IMG/VR virus record: IMGVR_UViG_2778261569_000004
Direction: 5' to 3' (one strand)
From: a virus
Taxonomy: Duplodnaviria > Heunggongvirae > Uroviricota > Caudoviricetes
DNA length: 13,057 nucleotides
Shown: positions 3,145 through 8,455 of the stretch, piece after piece
Position numbering within the stretch: position 1 is the first letter of the stretch
How the letters are laid out: each line of letters starts with the position of its first letter
Program-made: the position numbers and the translations under genes
The notes under the pieces: generated by a model
What the model was told of the DNA's origin: nothing
The model's database searches: none
Seen by the model: only the letters and a program-made list of their open reading frames with translations

Positions 3145-3283
3145 GACCTTTCTCCTTCTGCATCAGCTTCACTTTTTCCAACTCAGCCCGGAATCGACAA
3201 GGCTGCTTGAAGCTGGACAGGAAGCGATCACGTAGTATGTGTTTGTGAATTTTGTCCTGGTAAGGACTGAGTTGTTTTGTCAT
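3137..3283 (-). CDS. Putative small protein (48 aa) between cII and the initiator gene
   Basis: ATG at 3283..3281 with an AGGAG Shine-Dalgarno 7 nt upstream; translation [48 protein letters not shown]; stop overlaps the initiator start. Below the ORF-track size cut-off and unsupported by homology. Confidence 0.25.
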
Positions 3284-3317
3284 AATTACTCCTGTGGATT
3301 GATCCAGTCTTTCTACA

Positions 3318-3596
3318 TCAGGCCTCGAAGAATTCGCCGTTCTTCGGGGCTTTTTCTTTTGTCAGGATTCTGGCTACTTTCTTAGCCAGTTCCGCCAACT
3401 CCTCGTCTTCAACACCCCATTCAAGAACAGCCAGAAGCATTCCCATTTTGGGGATGAAGCTATCTTTCCATCGCGAAATTTGCGATTCATTAATCCCTAA
3501 CGCGTCGGCAACCTTTCGCTGACCACGTACAGCAATTCGATTCAGGATGTTGCTTGTAATTGCATTCGCTTTCTTGCGAGTACTTGTAAGTTGCAT
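3318..3596 (-). CDS. cII: CII transcriptional activator (lysogeny establishment)
   Basis: Recognised similarity to lambda CII, including the near-identical block SQISRWK...[13 protein letters not shown]. The translation-initiation region TAAGGAAATACTTACATATG matches the classic lambda cII ribosome-binding site, so the start is ATG 3596, not the upstream start in the ORF track. Confidence 0.85.
3323..3360 (+). terminator. Rho-independent terminator on the strand antisense to cII (oop-like terminator)
   Basis: Stem CCTCGAAGAA/TTCTTCGGGG (3323-3332 / 3340-3349, one G-U pair), 7-nt loop, then CTTTTTCTTTT (3350-3360). It lies on the plus strand inside the 3' end of minus-strand cII, the geometry of the lambda oop RNA terminator. 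Confidence 0.55.
3550..3563 (+). promoter_or_regulatory. CII-binding site TTGC-N6-TTGC (PRE-like establishment promoter -35 region)
   Basis: TTGCTTGTAATTGC on the plus strand inside the cII N-terminal codons, oriented to drive transcription antisense through cro towards cI, as lambda PRE does. The -10 element is not confidently identified. Confidence 0.5.
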
Positions 3597-3655
3597 ATGT
3601 AAGTATTTCCTTAACAAATAAGAAGTTATGCGCATCAAATTATGCGCGTTGTATT

Positions 3656-3698
3656 CCCGCATTTCGGCGGGAATGATGACCATGACTGTTAAAGAGCG
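3656..3698 (-). promoter_or_regulatory. nutR site (boxA plus boxB hairpin)
   Basis: On the minus strand just after the cro stop: boxA CGCTCTTTAACA (plus 3687-3698, reverse complement), then boxB hairpin CCCGC-CGAAAT-GCGGG (plus 3656-3671). The boxB sequence is identical to the one at nutL. Confidence 0.6.
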
Positions 3699-3704
3699 GT
3701 GTTA

Positions 3705-3899
3705 CTATTTGTTTTTCTTGTTGCTTGGGAAAGGACGAACTTCCTCTCCAATCACACTGCCATCAGGCTTTACCGTAACCATGATGTTACGGCCTGCCAG
3801 AATGGCCTTGCTGATAGCGCACTGGATTACACCAAAGTCACTGGCTGCTTTAGCCTGTCCATGGATTTTGGCGTAATCGGCAAGTGTCATTCGAATCAT
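3705..3899 (-). CDS. cro: Cro repressor
   Basis: Recognised similarity to lambda Cro (TLADYA..GQ.K.A.D.GV.Q.AI.KAI.AGR.I.....DGSV..EEV.PFPSNKK). Start placed at ATG 3899 with a GGAGAG Shine-Dalgarno 5 nt upstream. Divergent from cI across the operator region. Confidence 0.85.
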
Positions 3900-3929
3900 A
3901 TGCACTCTCCGTTATTAACCATGAACAAA

Positions 3930-3995
3930 GAATACTACAGGTATTCAAAGCAATCAATACTCAGGGTATTTTTAGTTTAAGTACCTTAGCTATTA
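3930..3995. promoter_or_regulatory. OR operator region: three 17-bp operators with divergent PR and PRM promoters
   Basis: Operators GAATACTACAGGTATTC (3930-3946) and CAATACTCAGGGTATTT (3955-3971) are palindromic; a degenerate third site AAGTACCTTAGCTATTA lies at 3979-3995. Centre spacings are 25 and 24 bp. PR candidate on the minus strand: -35 TTGATT, 17-bp spacer, -10 TATTCT. PRM candidate on the plus strand: -10 TAGAAT at 3994-3999, which places +1 at about the A of the cI ATG (leaderless; no Shine-Dalgarno before cI). Confidence 0.6.
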
Positions 3996-4005
3996 GAATT
4001 AAGCT

Positions 4006-4722
4006 ATGGAAAATAAAAAATCACTGACGACAGAACAGCTCGAAGACGCTAAGCGGCTTAAGGCTTTGTATGAGTCAAAAAAGAAAGAATTGGGAATAAC
4101 CCAATACTCAATCGCTGATGAACTGGGTATCACCCAAGGAGCGGTAGGGCATTATCTTAATGGCAGAAACGCGCTAAACGTTGAGGTCGCATCTGGTTTT
4201 GCACGTTTGTTGCAAGTCTCAATTGCTGATTTTAGCCAGTCAATTGCTGCCAAGGTTGCAGAACAGGCAGAAAGCCTTAAGAGCGATGCCAACGTAAGGT
4301 ATGCAGGGGAATACAGAGCAGGAAAGAGGTATCCGGTGTTAAGCAGTATCCAGGCTGGCTCGTGGTGTGAAGCATGCGAACCATACACCATTAAAGACAT
4401 AGATGTTTGGCTTGAGTCTGACGCGCATATTCAAGGTAATGCGTTCTGGCTTAAAGTGGAAGGTGATTCAATGACGGCACCGGTTGGGTTAAGCATTCCA
4501 GAGGGAACATTCGTTCTTTTCGATACCGGAAGGGAGGCGATCAACGGCAGCTTGGTCATAGCAAAACTTTCTGACTCTAACGAAGCAACATTCAAGAAGC
4601 TGATAATCGACGGCGGAAATAAATACCTCAAGGGACTTAATCCTGCATGGCCTCTCGTGCCAATCAATGGAAACTGCAAGATTATAGGCGTTGCAATTGA
4701 GACAAAACTAAGGCTGGTTTGA
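4006..4722 (+). CDS. cI: CI repressor (HTH DNA-binding domain plus LexA/S24-type autocleavage domain)
   Basis: Recognised similarity to lambda CI: N-terminal LTxEQLEDAKRLKALYE.KK.ELG..Q.S.AD..G and C-terminal FWL.VEGDSMTAP ... ATFKKLI (Ser/Lys dyad). Divergent from cro. Confidence 0.9.
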   Translation: MENKKSLTTEQLEDAKRLKALYESKKKELGITQYSIADELGITQGAVGHYLNGRNALNVEVASGFARLLQVSIADFSQSIAAKVAEQAESLKSDANVRYAGEYRAGKRYPVLSSIQAGSWCEACEPYTIKDIDVWLESDAHIQGNAFWLKVEGDSMTAPVGLSIPEGTFVLFDTGREAINGSLVIAKLSDSNEATFKKLIIDGGNKYLKGLNPAWPLVPINGNCKIIGVAIETKLRLV

Positions 4723-4739
4723 TCACGCAAGGGGCGATT

Positions 4740-5108
4740 ATGGTTGGAACCGCTATAGCAAGCTTTTTTGGGATGTTGGCAATCTCGACAATTTACGGCT
4801 TAGCGCATGCTTTTATTGCGAAATCTCTATCAGAAAAAATAAGCCAGGCTTGGGCGCATAGATCAGCTCGTTTCATGATTCTGGTGATCATAGCAATACA
4901 AGGGATATCTGCATTTATCCTCTATGGATCAAGCTTATACCTATTGTATCAAGGCGCGACATTTACGCCTTACACCAGTGATTACGGAACTCTATACGAT
5001 GGTAGTGAAGACATCACTGTGGCTTGGATCGTCTTTGGTTTATCTATGGCCGTGTCTGTTGTAGCAGACATCATTAAGGTAATTCTCGTCTTAACCTTCG
5101 CTGACTAA
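4740..5108 (+). CDS. Small integral membrane protein in the rex/sie position, co-transcribed with cI (candidate superinfection-exclusion or defence protein)
   Basis: ORF track frame 4719..5108; start placed at ATG 4740 with an AAGGGG Shine-Dalgarno, 18 nt after the cI stop. Three hydrophobic helices predicted by eye (about residues 1-25, 45-70 and 95-120). It occupies the lambda rexAB slot between cI and OL. No homologue recognised. Confidence 0.6.
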   Translation: MVGTAIASFFGMLAISTIYGLAHAFIAKSLSEKISQAWAHRSARFMILVIIAIQGISAFILYGSSLYLLYQGATFTPYTSDYGTLYDGSEDITVAWIVFGLSMAVSVVADIIKVILVLTFAD

Positions 5109-5193
5109 CCTATAATCCCGGCAGCAATAGCTATCGGGATCCACTTCACATATCCCGCATAAAAAGCACTGAACAAGCAGACACCGAAAAAAT

Positions 5194-5281
5194 AAATATC
5201 CTTTGTATTCATTTGCTTATCATTATTTCACCAAAAATAAATACCTTGGGTATTTACACAATAAAATACCTACAGTATTCT
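5194..5281 (+). promoter_or_regulatory. OL operator region and PL promoter
   Basis: Three 17-bp operators of the same family as OR: AAATATCCTTTGTATTC (5194-5210), AAATACCTTGGGTATTT (5239-5255) and AAATACCTACAGTATTC (5264-5280). PL candidate: -35 TTTACA (5253-5258), 17-bp spacer, -10 TATTCT (5276-5281), overlapping the operators as in lambda. Confidence 0.55.
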
Positions 5282-5326
5282 TTAGCCATCAGCAGGGCGC
5301 TGGAAGCCAAACGGAACAGATTGGCA

Positions 5327-5367
5327 GGCTCTTTAACATTGATGGGATTGTCCCGCCGAAATGCGGG
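5327..5367 (+). promoter_or_regulatory. nutL site (boxA plus boxB hairpin)
   Basis: boxA GGCTCTTTAACA (5327-5338) followed by boxB CCCGC-CGAAAT-GCGGG (5352-5367), identical to the boxB at nutR; lies in the leader between PL and N. Confidence 0.6.
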
Positions 5368-5475
5368 AACCAAAGAGTAGTTGGCTTTGGGGTGACGTGA
5401 AGTGCAGCTGCACGACGGCAACCGGAAGATAAGCACCCGGCGCGTCACCGCCAAAGTCAATCATCGGAGGTCAAC

Positions 5476-5748
5476 ATGACAGTAGTCATTACATATCTGG
5501 CTGACGATAACGCCAGAAATCGCCGCAGAGCACGCAGACAGGCTCAACGTGAACAGGCAATGCAAGAGCAGCGACTGGCACGAAAAATTGCGCTAAAGCT
5601 CTCTGGTTGCGTCAGAGCAGATAAAGCAGCATCACTCGGAAGCCTTTGCTGCAAGGAAGAAGATGAACGCAGTGGAAGTATTTGCCTGCCAAACGTAGCC
5701 ATTTACGCGGCAGGATACCGGAAATCAAAACAACTGACAGCGAGGTAA
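5476..5748 (+). CDS. N: Antitermination protein N (P22 gene 24-like)
   Basis: N-terminal arginine-rich motif NARNRRRARRQAQREQ (boxB RNA-binding ARM); C-terminus ...AIYAAGYRKSKQLTAR resembles my recollection of P22 gp24; GGAGG Shine-Dalgarno; first gene downstream of PL and nutL. Confidence 0.8.
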   Translation: MTVVITYLADDNARNRRRARRQAQREQAMQEQRLARKIALKLSGCVRADKAASLGSLCCKEEDERSGSICLPNVAIYAAGYRKSKQLTAR

Positions 5749-5751
5749 GTG

Positions 5752-5976
5752 ATGAATCAGACATACATTCCATCATGCTTGAGAAATCTGCCAAAGCAGA
5801 AAGCAAAGCCCCGCAAGCAAGCCATAAAGGACGCTAAGGCAGAGGTTATTGATCAAGCAATACAATTGCTCAGGGAGGAGTTAAGAAGTGGCAAGCTCGA
5901 AGGAATGATGATGCCCTATCAGCGCGGATATCTATCGGCGATTAGTAAGTTGGAAGTATTGAAGAGTGAATTATGA
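5752..5976 (+). CDS. Hypothetical early protein (74 aa)
   Basis: ATG 5752 with a GAGG Shine-Dalgarno, starting 4 nt after the N stop. Basic N-terminus, predicted helical. In the position of ral or kil-type genes but not recognisably similar. Confidence 0.45.
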   Translation: MNQTYIPSCLRNLPKQKAKPRKQAIKDAKAEVIDQAIQLLREELRSGKLEGMMMPYQRGYLSAISKLEVLKSEL

Positions 5977-6038
5977 ACTATCTGGAATTTCCGGATGGTT
6001 CATTGTTTTGGCAGCAAACCACTTATTTGAGGTGATGT

Positions 6039-6125
6039 ATGGAAGAAGAATTTGAAGAGTTCGAAGAGCATCCTCAGGATGTGATGGAACAATACCAGGA
6101 CTATCCGTATGACTACGACTATTGA
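6039..6125 (+). CDS. Putative very small acidic protein (28 aa)
   Basis: ATG 6039 preceded by GAGGTGA; translation MEEEFEEFEEHPQDVMEQYQDYPYDYDY. Below the ORF-track cut-off; speculative. Confidence 0.2.
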   Translation: MEEEFEEFEEHPQDVMEQYQDYPYDYDY

Positions 6126-6309
6126 TAAAAATCAATGGTGTGGACAATTCAAGCGATGCAATGGATGCAAGCTGCAATCGGAATGCATGGTTAAGCCTGA
6201 AGAAATGTTTCCTGTAATGGAAGATGGGGAATATGTCGATAAATGGGCAATACGAACGACGGCAATGATTGCCAGAGAACTTGGTAAACTGAACAACAAG
6301 GCTGCCTGA
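6109..6309 (+). CDS. Hypothetical small Cys-containing protein (66 aa)
   Basis: ORF track. Four cysteines in CGQFKRCNGCKLQSEC, a possible metal-binding knuckle. Ends just before a terminator. Confidence 0.4.
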   Translation: MTTTIDKNQWCGQFKRCNGCKLQSECMVKPEEMFPVMEDGEYVDKWAIRTTAMIARELGKLNNKAA

Positions 6310-6327
6310 TGGCGGCCTTTATTTTTG
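6298..6327 (+). terminator. Rho-independent terminator
   Basis: Stem AAGGCTGCC/GGCGGCCTT with a TGAT tetraloop, followed by TATTTTTGG. Confidence 0.6.
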
Positions 6328-6374
6328 GCATAAACAACAGAATAAACACAGCACTGAATTATTTGAGGTGAGAT

Positions 6375-6845
6375 ATGACAAAATCATGGAGCGTACCTTT
6401 TCCTGAATCAGAAACTGAACATGATGGAATGCCTGTTTTCTGGAGATTCCAAGCGACAGTTGAAGAAGATGGAATCAAAATATTCGCACTTCAATATATA
6501 GCTTTTCATCAGACAGATCATTATGCATGGTTGGTTCCTGCGCATTGGATTGTTAATTTTAAACCAGCACCAAATCAGTGGTTACAGGAATGGAAACAAA
6601 GGAGAAATAGATATGCAATTAAGAAAGTAGCAAAAAATGCCGAAAGATCTTTTGCATTCCCGACGAAGAAACTTGCCATTGAAAGTTTATTGCGCCGGAA
6701 GAAGTACCATTTAATGAGAATCAAACAAGATTTGGCTGTTGTATCAACTCTTGTTGATGGGATGAAGAATATTGATACATCAATACCAGATATTGAATAT
6801 AACTTTGGACACAACCAAGAAACAGAAAATTGGGTGTTTTATTAG
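6375..6845 (+). CDS. Hypothetical protein on a low-GC moron-like insert (156 aa)
   Basis: ATG 6375 with a GAGGTGA Shine-Dalgarno. A hand count over the first 300 nt gives roughly 37% G+C, against roughly 45% at the start of erf. Bracketed by the terminator at 6298-6327 upstream and by an inverted repeat (6860-6887) and terminator-like hairpin (6951-6974) downstream. No family recognised. Confidence 0.6.
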   Translation: MTKSWSVPFPESETEHDGMPVFWRFQATVEEDGIKIFALQYIAFHQTDHYAWLVPAHWIVNFKPAPNQWLQEWKQRRNRYAIKKVAKNAERSFAFPTKKLAIESLLRRKKYHLMRIKQDLAVVSTLVDGMKNIDTSIPDIEYNFGHNQETENWVFY

Positions 6846-7039
6846 TACGAATAAGCACTGTGTATTCATTCCAACGAGTGAATACACGGAGCAATGTCGC
6901 TCGTAACTAAACAGGAGCCGACTTGTTCTGATTATTGGAAATCTTCTTTGCCCTCCAGTGTGAGGGCCTTTTTATATGCATACCAATAACGCTTCACTCG
7001 AGGCGTTTTCGTTATGCAATCAAACAGAAGGAGCATCCT

Positions 7040-7210
7040 ATGCAACAGTTCGCTATTGCAGGGGCGGCATCGGTTCGCCCTTTCAACCCGATTTTATCGG
7101 TACAGCATTCACGAAAAAATATTTTAACCGGAGCAGACTTTAAACAACCAAGAATGAAAAGCTTGCTCGAAAAGCTTTGGGATATTTTGAAACAACAAGG
7201 CCGCCCATGA
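7040..7210 (+). CDS. Hypothetical small protein (56 aa)
   Basis: ATG 7040 with a GAAGGAG Shine-Dalgarno 6 nt upstream; in frame with the longer TTG-initiated ORF in the track (6935), which I consider an over-extension. Confidence 0.4.
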   Translation: MQQFAIAGAASVRPFNPILSVQHSRKNILTGADFKQPRMKSLLEKLWDILKQQGRP

Positions 7211-7377
7211 GTTTTACAGATAACTGGTCAGACGAAGAATTCATTCGTCAGATGAAAGAATTAATCGGTAACGAAGGAGATATTCATGTCACTTGCAACC
7301 ACCGTGAAGGAGAGCAAGTTACAGAGACGCATGTACACGCAGCAGGCGTTAATGTATCGCCAGAAGGGAGATCGTGA
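7207..7377 (+). CDS. Hypothetical small protein (56 aa), directly upstream of erf (Arf-like position)
   Basis: ATG 7207 overlaps the stop of the preceding gene (ATGA). Its position matches P22 arf, but that is not verifiable by eye. Confidence 0.35.
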   Translation: MSFTDNWSDEEFIRQMKELIGNEGDIHVTCNHREGEQVTETHVHAAGVNVSPEGRS

Positions 7378-7466
7378 AGGTGTTCGCGTATTTTTAAATG
7401 CGGCAAAGACTGAAGTATTAAATCAGCGTTATTTCCTTGGGCCATGTCCATTCTGAGAACAATCAT

Positions 7467-8072
7467 ATGAGCAAAGAATTTTACGCAAGACTGGCAGCTA
7501 TTCAGGAAAATCTGAACGCGCCCAAGAATCAGTACAACTCATTCGGTAAATATAAATACAGAAGCTGCGAAGACATTCTTGAAGGCGTTAAGCCGTTACT
7601 GAATGGTCTGTTTTTATCAATCAGCGATGAAGTTGTGTTGATTGGTAATCGGTATTACGTGAAAGCCACGGCAACTATTACCGATGGCGAAAACAGTCAT
7701 ACGGCAACCGCTCTTGCACGAGAGGAAGAAAGCAAGAAAGGAATGGATTCTGCACAAGTTACGGGAGCTACAAGCTCTTATGCACGCAAGTATTGCCTCA
7801 ATGGTTTGTTCGGCATTGATGATGCGAAAGATGCAGATACAGACGAGCATAAACATCAGCAGAACGCAGCAGCAAAGCAATCAAAACCATCACCTACACC
7901 TGAACAGGTTCTAAAAGCATTCACTGACGCAGCATTGCAGAAAAACACCGTAGAAGAGCTTAAACAGGCGTTCGCCAAAGCGTGGAAGATGCTCGAAGGC
8001 ACACCGGAGCAGCACAAAGCGCAGGACGTTTACAACATCAGACGAGACGAATTAGAAGGAGCGGCTGCTTAA
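7467..8072 (+). CDS. erf: Erf-family single-strand annealing recombinase
   Basis: N-terminal region MSKEFYARLAAIQENLNAPKNQYNSFGKYKYRSCEDILEGVKPLL matches my recollection of P22 Erf closely. Start at ATG 7467, not the upstream start in the ORF track. Confidence 0.8.
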   Translation: MSKEFYARLAAIQENLNAPKNQYNSFGKYKYRSCEDILEGVKPLLNGLFLSISDEVVLIGNRYYVKATATITDGENSHTATALAREEESKKGMDSAQVTGATSSYARKYCLNGLFGIDDAKDADTDEHKHQQNAAAKQSKPSPTPEQVLKAFTDAALQKNTVEELKQAFAKAWKMLEGTPEQHKAQDVYNIRRDELEGAAA

Positions 8073-8455
8073 TGGCACATTCGATTACTGTAAGACTAAA
8101 CAAGCCCGCAAGAGAGTTTCAGGCCGGGGAAAATATCGGATTCAACATCCGTGCTGGCGTTCAGTATTACGATCGCCAGACAAAAAAGAAAGAATGGACA
8201 AACTACAACGCCGTTGTATTTGCCAAGCCGGGAGCGCAAGCGGATTACTACCGTAGTGTTCTTGTTGAAGGTGGCATTGTAGAAATTACCGGAGAAAACA
8301 TCAGGGTTGATGTTTATCAGGGGCAAAATGGTCAATCAATCACTCTTGAATTACTGAATGCAAAGATTGGATTTGCAGCTTCAGGAAATGGCCCGCAGCA
8401 GCAAAGTAGTAACCAGCAGAACACCCCTGTATACGACGATTCCATCCCATTCTGA
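8072..8455 (+). CDS. Putative ssDNA-binding protein with an SSB-type C-terminal tail (128 aa)
   Basis: ATG 8072 overlaps the erf stop (TAATG). C-terminus ...GNGPQQQSSNQQNTPVYDDSIPF has a Gln/Asn-rich linker ending in DDSIPF, mirroring the E. coli SSB tail (DDDIPF). The N-terminal region is not canonical SSB by eye, so the OB-fold assignment is inferred. Confidence 0.55.
   Translation: MAHSITVRLNKPAREFQAGENIGFNIRAGVQYYDRQTKKKEWTNYNAVVFAKPGAQADYYRSVLVEGGIVEITGENIRVDVYQGQNGQSITLELLNAKIGFAASGNGPQQQSSNQQNTPVYDDSIPF

Follow-up and report, generated by a model that had tools for sequence, protein, structure and literature searches.

As listed in Table 1, a 156-codon gene (hereafter ORF156) lies in the lambdoid early-left (pL) operon of the window, that is, the whole stretch of 13,057 nucleotides analyzed here. 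The oL/pL region, nutL, N, ral, cIII, erf, and abc2 are all on the plus strand, and ORF156 is on the same strand, downstream of pL, nutL, and N and upstream of cIII and the recombination genes. The three oL repeats (5195-5209, 5240-5254, and 5265-5279) are overlapped by a pL-like promoter, TTTACA-17-TATTCT, at 5253-5281. The nutL boxA GCTCTTTAACA at 5328-5338 fits the consensus known from lambda and rrn, and the hairpin UCCCGC-CGAAAU-GCGGGA at 5351-5368 is probably boxB-like. The 3′ end of N (5683-5746) is common to the N genes of 933W and HK97. These elements bear out the N-antiterminated early-left operon that an earlier note on this DNA had named as the setting of the gene. Further downstream, ral was identified with the Pfam Ral profile (E = 1.5e-47) and orf28 with PHROG 16060, and the segment 6014-6356 is 96.8% identical to orf28-ral of lambda. 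The linker in front of orf28 matches the 933W and HK97 sequence immediately 5′ of L0079/gp45.

Table 1. Features of the early-left operon around ORF156, with their positions in the window.
Feature	Position	Strand	Remark
oL operator repeats with overlapping pL-like promoter	5195-5281	+	AATAYC...GTATT dyad, three copies; between the cI-distal ORF and N
nutL	5328-5368	+	boxA and boxB-like hairpin, read off the sequence
N antiterminator gene, 90 aa	5476-5748	+	Pfam PF25694 N_peptide, E = 5e-15
First linker copy containing a Shine-Dalgarno sequence	6012-6041	+	precedes orf28; TTATTTGAGGTGA at 6023-6035
orf28 (6039-6125) and ral (6109-6309)	6039-6309	+	lambda-type anti-restriction module
Intrinsic terminator-like hairpin at the ral stop codon	6298-6327	+	9-bp stem and T run
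Left half of the conserved boundary sequence (TTTATTTTTGGCATAAACAACAGAATAAACACAGCACTG)	6313-6356	+	
ORF156 cassette, insertion relative to lambda	6357-6854	+	blastn breakpoints against lambda, 933W, HK97, and Stx2-86
ORF156 coding sequence	6375-6845	+	156 codons; inside the cassette 6357-6854
Stable stem-loop	6858-6889	+	just 5′ of the estimated PreS start
Putative PreS/LPR1 sRNA orthologue	6886-6973	+	extent inferred from the published size of ~88 nt ending at tL2a
tL2a terminator, right-hand module junction	6950-6977	+	GCCCTC-CAGTGT-GAGGGC and U run
Further hairpin and T run, 5′ of cIII	6988-7007	+	dG -9.9, z -4.2
cIII homologue, next gene of the operon	7040-7210	+	PHROG 550, E = 1e-22

ORF156 had been described as lower in G+C than its neighbors (about 37% versus 45%), and the computed values are 36.1% for the gene (GC1 45.2, GC2 34.4, and GC3 28.7) and 44.5% for both the left (5476-6374) and the right (6846-8455) flank, while the whole window has 46.2%. 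In a sliding comparison over the whole window, the gene ranks in the lowest 0.5% of all 471-bp windows, and the minimum (35.7%) starts at 6398, within ORF156. Third-position composition deviates as well; A or T occupies the third position of 71.8% of the ORF156 codons versus 55.6% in 13 other plus-strand genes pooled (Fisher p = 9e-5). The strong Shine-Dalgarno sequence claimed for the gene is GAGGTGA at 6365-6371, with three nucleotides between it and the ATG at 6375. The hairpin at the end of ral has a stem of nine pairs, six of them G-C, at 6298-6319, followed by TATTTTT (dG -16.5 kcal/mol, z -3.4, and none of 200 shuffles as stable). Downstream of ORF156, the inverted repeat has nine perfect Watson-Crick pairs (6860-6868/6879-6887) and extends to a stem of 12-14 bp (6858-6871/6876-6889; dG -21.7, z -7.8). 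It is followed by the tL2a hairpin at 6950-6967 with a T run (dG -10.7, z -2.1). Thus, all the elements that had been noted, namely the upstream terminator, the 9-bp repeat, and the downstream terminator-like hairpin, are real and correctly placed. A further hairpin next to cIII, which the earlier note does not mention, is common to lambda, 933W, and HK97.

Do the hairpins belong to ORF156? The upstream one also ends the gene H0090 in VT2-Sakai, is degenerate in lambda, and is absent from 933W, HK97, and Stx2-86, where ORF156 lies directly 3′ of N with no terminator between them. By this comparison it closes the ral module at its 3′ end and is not a terminator of ORF156 itself. Five phages without ORF156, namely lambda, 434, Sf6, HK106, and VT2-Sakai, carry the downstream inverted repeat and hairpin at an identity of at least 95%. 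The stem-loop at 6858-6889 is identical in these five phages as well as in 933W and HK97. The annotation of Sf6 calls the tL2a hairpin tL2A or boundary sequence bsq4, and those of HK97, HK106, and 434 call it a terminator; in 933W, ea10 is inserted exactly after position 6977. A terminator consensus scan over 5000-8000 gave six terminator-like sites versus 2.8 +/- 2.0 in shuffled sequences, and every module of the early-left operon ends in a hairpin. Since this is so, and since the alternative genes of the ORF156 slot are similarly AT-rich, neither trait singles out ORF156.

The borders of the cassette were defined by comparison with related phages. In lambda, Sf6, VT2-Sakai, 434, and HK106, the sequence of 6313-6356 runs straight into that of 6855 onward. 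Lambda is colinear with 6014-6356 and with 6855-6977, and the two segments overlap at a single GCACTG, which is present in the window as direct repeats flanking the cassette (6351-6356 and 6855-6860). In contrast to lambda, 933W, HK97, and Stx2-86 match the window from 6359 to 6977 or beyond. Thus, the DNA common to all ORF156 carriers begins at 6359, 16 nucleotides before the ATG. The 13-nt linker in front of orf28 recurs at 6359-6371, where it contains the Shine-Dalgarno sequence of ORF156. These alignments show that the cassette consists of only a Shine-Dalgarno sequence and the ORF, and that it splits a boundary sequence of ~165 nt at GCACTG in this lambda-like prophage. They also show, by sequence comparison, that ORF156 sits in a recombination hot spot between N/ral and this conserved boundary sequence. 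The junctions lie at short linker and boundary sequences common to phages with different neighbors, as is the case for modules of the pL operon.

Is ORF156 a regular component of this operon? It is carried by 83 of 325 phage records and by 598 of 5426 complete E. coli genomes. The conserved 123-nt PreS/boundary element was found at 3199 places in 2237 of the 5426 E. coli genomes, and ORF156 adjoins it at 834 of these places (about 26%). The gene is thus variable rather than universal among related phages. In the phages without it, unrelated genes occupy the same slot: gp34 in Sf6, H0090 in VT2-Sakai and HK106, and a Nun-like protein of 289 aa in 434. It was considered whether gp34 of Sf6 and H0090 of VT2-Sakai are divergent homologues of ORF156, but the hhalign probability was below 1% for both. 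The left neighbor of ORF156 may be ral, DUF7167, Nmad5, or N, and the right neighbor may be cIII, DUF2528, or a sie-like gene. Judged from its sequence context, ORF156 belongs to the accessory rather than the core genes of the lambdoid early-left operon and is exchanged horizontally.

On the right, the cassette adjoins the counterpart of a published lambda RNA, PreS/LPR1. In lambda this is an Hfq-dependent sRNA ending at tL2a (bioRxiv 10.1101/2024.10.31.621285). The 123 nucleotides at 6855-6977 are 97.6% identical to the ral-ea10 spacer of lambda and differ only at 6968, 6969, and 6974, so that the PreS body is the same as in lambda. By this identity, 6855-6977 is the PreS/LPR1 sRNA with tL2a, while Hfq binding and the lytic-cycle species of ~88 and ~68 nt have been shown for lambda only (bioRxiv 10.1101/2024.10.31.621285). 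No Rfam family covers 6846-6977. The candidate seed stretches at 6924-6934 and 6939-6950 provide a perfect 12-mer and 11-mer complementarity to positions -47 to -36 and -27 to -17 of MG1655 dnaN, whereas any 11-mer match arose in 10 of 2000 shuffles. The comparison shows that the conserved boundary sequence at which accessory genes are swapped corresponds to this recently described sRNA. Since ORF156 is inserted at GCACTG 5′ of PreS, PreS is placed in the 3′ untranslated region of ORF156 and not in that of ral.

The predicted protein is the same gene product as HK97 gp45, 933W L0079, and Stx2-86 orf57; over the full length of 156 aa it is 98% identical to gp45 and 98.7% identical to the other two. 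It matches PHROG 1636 with an E-value of 1e-111, with residues 1-156 aligned to profile positions 1-156, and all 68 members of the ORF156 alignment A2 match the same PHROG. Among 20 homologues from Escherichia, Pectobacterium, Brenneria, Rosenbergiella, and Symbiopectobacterium, with identities down to 55%, 42 columns are invariant, and E. coli alleles differ by 6-9 synonymous versus 2-3 nonsynonymous codon differences. The possibility of a spurious ORF was rejected on the basis of the cross-genus conservation and the surplus of synonymous differences; by its substitution pattern, ORF156 is a real gene under purifying selection. The family comprises about 80 representatives at 50% clustering from temperate phages of Gammaproteobacteria. 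A profile search also found relatives of ~140 aa, and remote relatives are encoded in prophage early operons (between repressor and integrase) of other Gammaproteobacteria. Their neighbors include DNA methylase, RdgC, and xis/int genes, from which no specific partner emerges, while the operon of a Salmonella phage homologue also encodes a beta-clamp homologue. Among the matches listed, all 46 relatives are unnamed or annotated as "hypothetical protein".

The earlier note had recognized no family for the protein, and searches agreed with it. Pfam, NCBIfam, PADLOC, and PDB (phmmer and profile) gave no significant match to ORF156, leaving only PHROGs of unknown function; the negative PADLOC result includes its defense-system models. 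The AlphaFold2 model is poor (pLDDT 57.8), and neither remote-homology search nor structure prediction yielded a fold or family match. From the sequence, the protein is calculated to be 18.6 kDa and soluble with a pI of 9.1, no membrane segment was found in the sequence profile, and the predicted layout is acidic at both termini, with beta structure prevailing in the N-terminal part, and strongly basic and helical in the center, where K84, K87, R91, R107, K109, and R115 make up the basic core. The literature search gave nothing on L0079, the accession numbers, or PHROG 1636, and the matches for HK97 "gp45" concern gp45 of other phages. The orf184 gene of Silas et al. is encoded in an accessory region common with ral and triggers gop-beta-cII; it is a different protein from ORF156, beginning with MEALVVERSEDGYWT. 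The ORF156 sequence is present in the supplements of neither of the two Silas-lab papers. ORF156 is a catalogued hypothetical gene at a textbook mosaic junction.

How might ORF156 be expressed? The earlier note read the locus as an autonomously expressed moron cassette bracketed by terminators. What the analysis supports of this reading is a separately acquired, variably present gene with deviant composition; autonomous expression and the ownership of the terminators find no support. A consensus scan found no sigma-70-like promoter between 6000 and 6375, and the cassette cannot carry one, since the carrier-shared DNA starts 16 nucleotides before the ATG. The upstream terminator belongs to ral or H0090 and the downstream one is tL2a of lambda. 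A weak or non-sigma-70 promoter may lie in the 3′ end of ral or in the left half of the boundary sequence. With no promoter of its own and standard lambda hairpins around it, ORF156 is better described as a common kind of mosaic module than as a moron that drives its own expression, and its position downstream of oL/pL, nutL, and N makes it most likely an N-antiterminated early lytic gene.

I therefore favor, with a probability of roughly 0.75 for the whole explanation, that ORF156 is a swappable accessory gene of the pL operon, expressed early in lytic growth under N antitermination and having a host-directed role. Judging from the anatomy of the operon, ORF156 would be transcribed from pL. 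When cI repression is lifted, N would be loaded at nutL, and RNA polymerase would read through the hairpins at 5973-6003 (after orf75), 6298-6327, and 6950-6977. Since transcription from pL follows cI release and depends on this readthrough, the protein would be made early in lytic growth or induction and not in a stable lysogen. The 3′ untranslated part of the message would be the PreS sRNA, ending at tL2a. From its neighborhood and charge pattern, ORF156 is most likely a dispensable protein directed at the host, with a host protein or nucleic acid as its binding partner in counter-defense or takeover, a role that agrees with the operon neighbors Ral, Abc2/Gam, Kil, and CIII. More speculatively, and with considerable doubt, ORF156 may found an uncharacterized novel-fold family of early-operon proteins whose basic helical core neutralizes a host defense or a host factor handling nucleic acids, with one message delivering both this protein and a host-reprogramming sRNA.

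Morons are common in lambdoid phages, and the concept is said to come from the HK97/HK022 genome paper by Juhala et al. in 2000. If ORF156 were a true moron, it would have its own promoter in the repressed prophage and its own insulating terminators, and it would benefit the lysogen through defense or fitness. The deviant GC, the variable presence, and the hairpins on both sides in the window fit such a gene, although low GC fits recent acquisition too and thus does not discriminate between a moron and an early-operon gene. This explanation is unlikely: no promoter-like site precedes the ORF, the carriers have only 16 nucleotides of DNA before the ATG in common, N directly precedes the gene without an intervening terminator in 933W, HK97, and Stx2-86, and the downstream hairpins pre-exist in phages without it. 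Nor does the soluble, basic protein resemble the membrane or exclusion proteins typical of morons. A lysogen of Phi24B was surveyed by 2D-PAGE/CMAT in a proteomics paper that describes this phage as very closely related to 933W, and no L0079 homologue is listed there among the proteins expressed in the lysogen; this is a weak point, as the gels covered acidic pI ranges and carriage by Phi24B is assumed.

ORF156 could instead be coupled to PreS, either tuning the processing or abundance of the sRNA or sharing its target pathway (host replication, DnaN). It lies immediately 5′ of PreS in all seven E. coli phage or prophage contexts inspected, and the beta-clamp homologue in the Salmonella phage operon points in the same direction. 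However, ~74% of the PreS loci have no ORF156, and the homologues in Pectobacterium, Marinobacterium, Vibrio, and other prophages are placed elsewhere with no sign of an adjoining PreS. Since all carriers have the same right-hand junction, one ancestral insertion explains the adjacency, and a functional coupling seems very unlikely. Least probable of all is that ORF156 acts in inter-phage competition or abortive infection during lytic growth, like sieB, nun, or rex. The slot or its neighbors hold sieB in lambda, a protein with a Nun C-terminal peptide in 434, and a "superinfection exclusion protein" in strain LH85-a, but ORF156 has neither a PADLOC match nor a membrane segment, and expression in the lysogen, which is normal for exclusion genes, finds no support in the anatomy of ORF156.

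The accessory pL-operon gene favored here bears on the annotation of similar loci. In a lambdoid early operon, low GC and hairpins on both sides do not suffice to call an ORF a moron; a promoter and a terminator borne by the cassette are needed, and comparison with lambda reassigns both "brackets" of ORF156 to elements of the framework. ORF156 is a reasonable and cheap candidate for counter-defense and host-takeover screens, given that ral, nun-like, sieB, Nmad5, and ea10 genes use the same hot spot and that Shiga-toxin phages carry ORF156.

Among known systems, HK97 gp45, 933W L0079, and Stx2-86 orf57 have the same operon and the same right-hand PreS/tL2a junction as ORF156. There, the gene comes immediately after N, whereas here orf28-ral lies between the two and the boundary sequence retains its left half. 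The ral-ea10 spacer of lambda and bsq4 of Sf6 resemble 6855-6977 in the GC hairpin with a U run, in the complementarity to the dnaN leader, and in the position before ea10/cIII. In lambda, however, the PreS element directly follows ral, while here ORF156 is inserted 5′ of it. The classical lambdoid morons, such as gene 15 of HK97 and bor and lom of lambda, sit in a late-operon intergenic site. ORF156 is like them an extra gene, variably present and of deviant composition, but unlike them it has no promoter or terminator of its own, lies within an antiterminated early operon, and is not expected to be expressed in the lysogen. Although ORF156 has no sequence or fold similarity to Ral, Gam/Abc2, Kil, or CIII, it is like them a small, presumably non-essential, and variably present member of the same operon, and it is AT-rich like lambda ral (41.3% GC), the one gene of that class with which GC was compared. 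By this analogy, Ral, Gam/Abc2, Kil, and CIII are proposed as the class of proteins that ORF156 may work like.

The window is lambdoid prophage DNA from the immunity and early region, and E. coli O111 chromosomes (e.g., NC_013364 and CP029692) match positions 6250-7050 at 100% identity. ORF156, the low-GC gene of 156 codons, lies on the pL strand 3′ of nutL and N, and its operon companions are Ral, Abc2, Kil, and CIII. An earlier note had placed it inside an N-antiterminated early-left operon; this is correct, since a pL-like promoter, nutL, and N lie 5′ of it on the same strand.

Features of the early-left region around ORF156 (window coordinates)
Feature	Position	Strand	Remarks
cI	4006-4722	+	Peptidase_S24 and HTH
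Hydrophobic 122-aa ORF	4740-5108	+	PHROG 6534 (unknown function)
Three operator-like dyads and pL-like promoter	5195-5281	+	
nutL boxA	5328-5338	+	GCTCTTTAACA
nutL boxB-like hairpin	5351-5368	+	
N	5476-5748	+	Pfam N_peptide
orf75		+	followed by hairpin 5973-6003
orf28 and ral	6039-6309	+	Pfam Ral, E 1.5e-47
Upstream hairpin and T run	stem 6298-6319	+	dG -16.5 kcal/mol, z -3.4
ORF156	6375-6845	+	between ral and cIII
Inverted repeat	6858-6889	+	12-14 bp stem; dG -21.7, z -7.8
Downstream hairpin and T run	6950-6967	+	dG -10.7, z -2.1
Additional hairpin	6988-7007	+	dG -9.9, z -4.2
cIII	7040-7210	+	
erf, ssb-like gene, abc2, further early genes	3′ of cIII, in that order	+	

The hairpin at 5973-6003 (+ strand) is strong (14 bp, dG -19.9, z -6.2, then TGTTTTGG), spans the stop codon of orf75, and occupies a place like that of tL1, 3′ of N and orf75. 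When 3309-6006 is compared with the O111:H- 11128 prophage (NC_013364), the flanks are 99.5-99.9% identical, but the cII-distal to N segment (the immunity region) is unrelated; from the alignment, these otherwise near-identical prophages are judged to differ by an immunity-module swap. RefSeq records of relatives label the N region 'hypothetical' plus a frameshifted pseudogene.

Is ORF156 a moron with its own promoter and terminators, as the earlier note proposed? The features that suggested this do exist. The GC content of ORF156 is 36.1% (GC3 28.7%) versus 44.5% in either flank and 46.2% in the whole window, which places it within the lowest 0.5% of all 471-bp windows. A or T occupies 71.8% of its third codon positions versus 55.6% in the 13 other plus-strand genes (Fisher p = 9e-5). 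The strong Shine-Dalgarno sequence (GAGGTGA, 6365-6371) and the three flanking hairpins were likewise found. However, the anatomy of the cassette is decisive against the moron reading, which fails on ownership of both promoter and terminators and is improbable. No sigma-70-like site was found within 6000-6375, and only 16 nt of DNA before the ATG travel with ORF156. The bracketing hairpins belong to the ral module and to PreS/tL2a. Low GC is a trait of this accessory-gene class and no special mark of ORF156, since the other genes at or near this site are generally AT-rich as well (434 gene, 34.6% GC; Sf6 gp34, 38.3%; ea10, 38.8%; sieB, 38.6%; Nmad5, 39.7%), and in Pectobacterium, a Salmonella phage, a Vibrio phage, and a metagenomic phage the ORF156 homologue has a lower GC content than its flanks.

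Lambda is colinear with window 6014-6356 (orf28, ral, the hairpin, and the spacer; 96.8%) and again with 6855-6977 (97.6%), and the two blocks abut in lambda, overlapping by a single GCACTG. Thus, 6357-6854 is read as an insertion relative to lambda, with GCACTG direct repeats at 6351-6356 and 6855-6860. In pairwise blastn, the match to 933W, HK97, and Stx2-86 extends over 6359-6977 or more at 96-98% identity; their ORF156 gene directly follows N, whereas orf75, orf28, and ral intervene in the window. The window, 933W, HK97, Sf6, VT2-Sakai, 434, and HK106 were aligned. Without ORF156, the conserved element runs uninterrupted (...TTTATTTTTGGCATAAACAACAGAATAAACAC(A/T)GCACTGTGTATTC...GAGGGC and a T run), while the right-hand junction, TACGAATAA followed by GCACTG, is identical in all ORF156 carriers. 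This common junction points to one ancestral insertion of ORF156 and subsequent reshuffling on the left side. A 13-nt linker containing the Shine-Dalgarno sequence, TTATTTGAGGTGA, is duplicated (6023-6035 before orf28/ral and 6359-6371 before ORF156), and the former copy with its 5′ flank matches the sequence preceding L0079 in 933W. Such short linkers appear to be the homology where early-operon modules are swapped. In 933W, ea10 is inserted exactly after 6977.

The strong terminator 5′ of ORF156 is present but overlaps the ral stop codon and is part of the ral module; it is degenerate in lambda, and the N-L0079 spacer of 933W has no terminator. In VT2-Sakai, it terminates H0090: at 1742-1785 (window 6292-6330), this unrelated gene has the hairpin and last codons of ral in the window (ACAACAAGGCTGCCTGA...), which hints at recombination within the 3′ ends of genes, at the terminator.

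On the 3′ side, the 123-nt block 6855-6977 occurs at at least 95% identity in 325 phage records, including lambda, 434, HK97, Sf6, Salmonella phages, and Stx phages. Of 5426 complete E. coli genomes, 2237 carry it, at 3199 places. It is annotated as the boundary sequence "bsq4" and "tL2A" in Sf6, and its hairpin as a terminator in HK97, HK106, and 434. In lambda, the sRNA LPR1/PreS (about 88 nt, processed form about 68 nt) lies between ral and ea10 and ends at tL2a; it is Hfq-dependent, is restricted to the lytic cycle, and raises dnaN translation (bioRxiv 10.1101/2024.10.31.621285, 2024 preprint). Relative to lambda, the window has changes at just three positions of the T run (6968, 6969, and 6974), which leaves the sRNA body identical. 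By this identity, 6855-6977 (+) is assigned as the PreS/LPR1 orthologue plus tL2a; no Rfam 15 family represents it. Residues 6939-6950 (12 nt) and 6924-6934 (11 nt) are perfectly complementary to -47 to -36 and -27 to -17 of the MG1655 dnaN leader, and any 11-mer complementarity arose in only 10 of 2000 shuffles. Accordingly, the inverted repeat (9 bp in the earlier note) is real but is a conserved stem-loop just 5′ of the estimated PreS start rather than part of the cassette, and the downstream hairpin is real but is tL2a, the 3′ end of PreS, found also in phages lacking ORF156.

ORF156 was found by tblastn in 83 phage records, and 598 of the 5426 E. coli genomes hold it, at 834 places. Its presence is variable: ORF156 occupies about 26% of the loci with the PreS element, and unrelated genes occupy the site elsewhere, namely ral and gp34 (140 aa) in Sf6, H0090 (83 aa) in VT2-Sakai and HK106, a protein of 289 aa bearing a Nun C-terminal peptide in 434, and nothing besides ral in lambda. 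The genes to its left (ral, DUF7167, Nmad5, or N) and, after PreS, to its right (cIII, DUF2528/ea10, or "superinfection exclusion protein") also vary. Functional coupling of ORF156 with PreS, which their adjacency might suggest, is likewise improbable; PreS stands alone at about 74% of loci, and a single ancestral insertion explains the adjacency better.

The protein is 98% identical to HK97 gp45 and 98.7% to 933W L0079 and Stx2-phage 86 orf57. Among 20 full-length homologues from Escherichia, Pectobacterium, Brenneria, Rosenbergiella, and Symbiopectobacterium, with identity down to 55%, 42 columns are invariant, and E. coli alleles differ by 6-9 synonymous versus 2-3 nonsynonymous codons. A spurious ORF was rejected on this conservation; ORF156 is a real gene. 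The earlier note recognised no family, and the searches agree: ORF156 hits PHROG 1636, of unknown function, along the entire protein (E 1e-111), and has no sequence match in Pfam, NCBIfam, PADLOC, or PDB. An exhaustive profile search gave 83 cluster representatives at E <= 1e-3, mostly of about 140 aa with the common core G...ET...K-x-x-K...RFAF-x-TK-x-x-A...RK-x-x-Q-x-x-HL; all belong to PHROGs 1636, 13631, or 25384 (unknown function), and the named ones are all "hypothetical protein". Sf6 gp34 and H0090 were rejected as family members (hhalign probability <1%). The AlphaFold2 model from the 20-sequence alignment is weak (pLDDT 57.8), with three N-terminal strands and then long helices. The protein is soluble (18.6 kDa, pI 9.1, no Cys, seven Trp), with an acidic N-terminus, a strongly basic centre (residues 61-115), and an acidic C-terminus. 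In Salmonella phage vB_SpuS_NX263 (4001-6401), a homologue with 64% identity heads an operon in which a DNA polymerase III beta-subunit homologue is also encoded; this is curious, as PreS, the neighbour of ORF156 in E. coli phages, up-regulates host dnaN, and may be a coincidence.

ORF156 would be transcribed only from pL, after cI repression is lifted; N-modified polymerase would read past the hairpins that follow orf75 and ral and the one at tL2a, and the 3′ end of the message would yield PreS. I put this structural and regulatory picture at about 0.75. Remote homologues have DNA methylase, RdgC, and xis/int genes as neighbours, in early operons that run from repressor to integrase. From these and the operon neighbourhood, with the charge architecture as an added hint, ORF156 is probably a dispensable host-directed factor, tentatively of the counter-defence or host-takeover class, whose basic helical core may bind a host protein or nucleic acid. 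An exclusion or abortive-infection role is improbable: ORF156 has neither a PADLOC match nor a membrane segment, and the lysogen is not expected to express it. The very hydrophobic 122-aa ORF (4740-5108, +) overlaps the cI stop codon 5′ of oL/pL, the rexAB position. Since co-transcription with cI in lysogens is expected in this slot, it is a better candidate than ORF156 for a lysogen-expressed exclusion or conversion gene.

It is rather unlikely that the gp45/L0079 family is a new counter-defence protein whose message also delivers PreS; if true, this would be moderately interesting. ORF156 is a member of a known, uncharacterised family (gp45/L0079) at a known mosaic junction, of the kind that Sf6 labels a boundary sequence. 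There is no new kind of system here; the flanking hairpins are lambda tL2a/PreS and the ral-distal hairpin.
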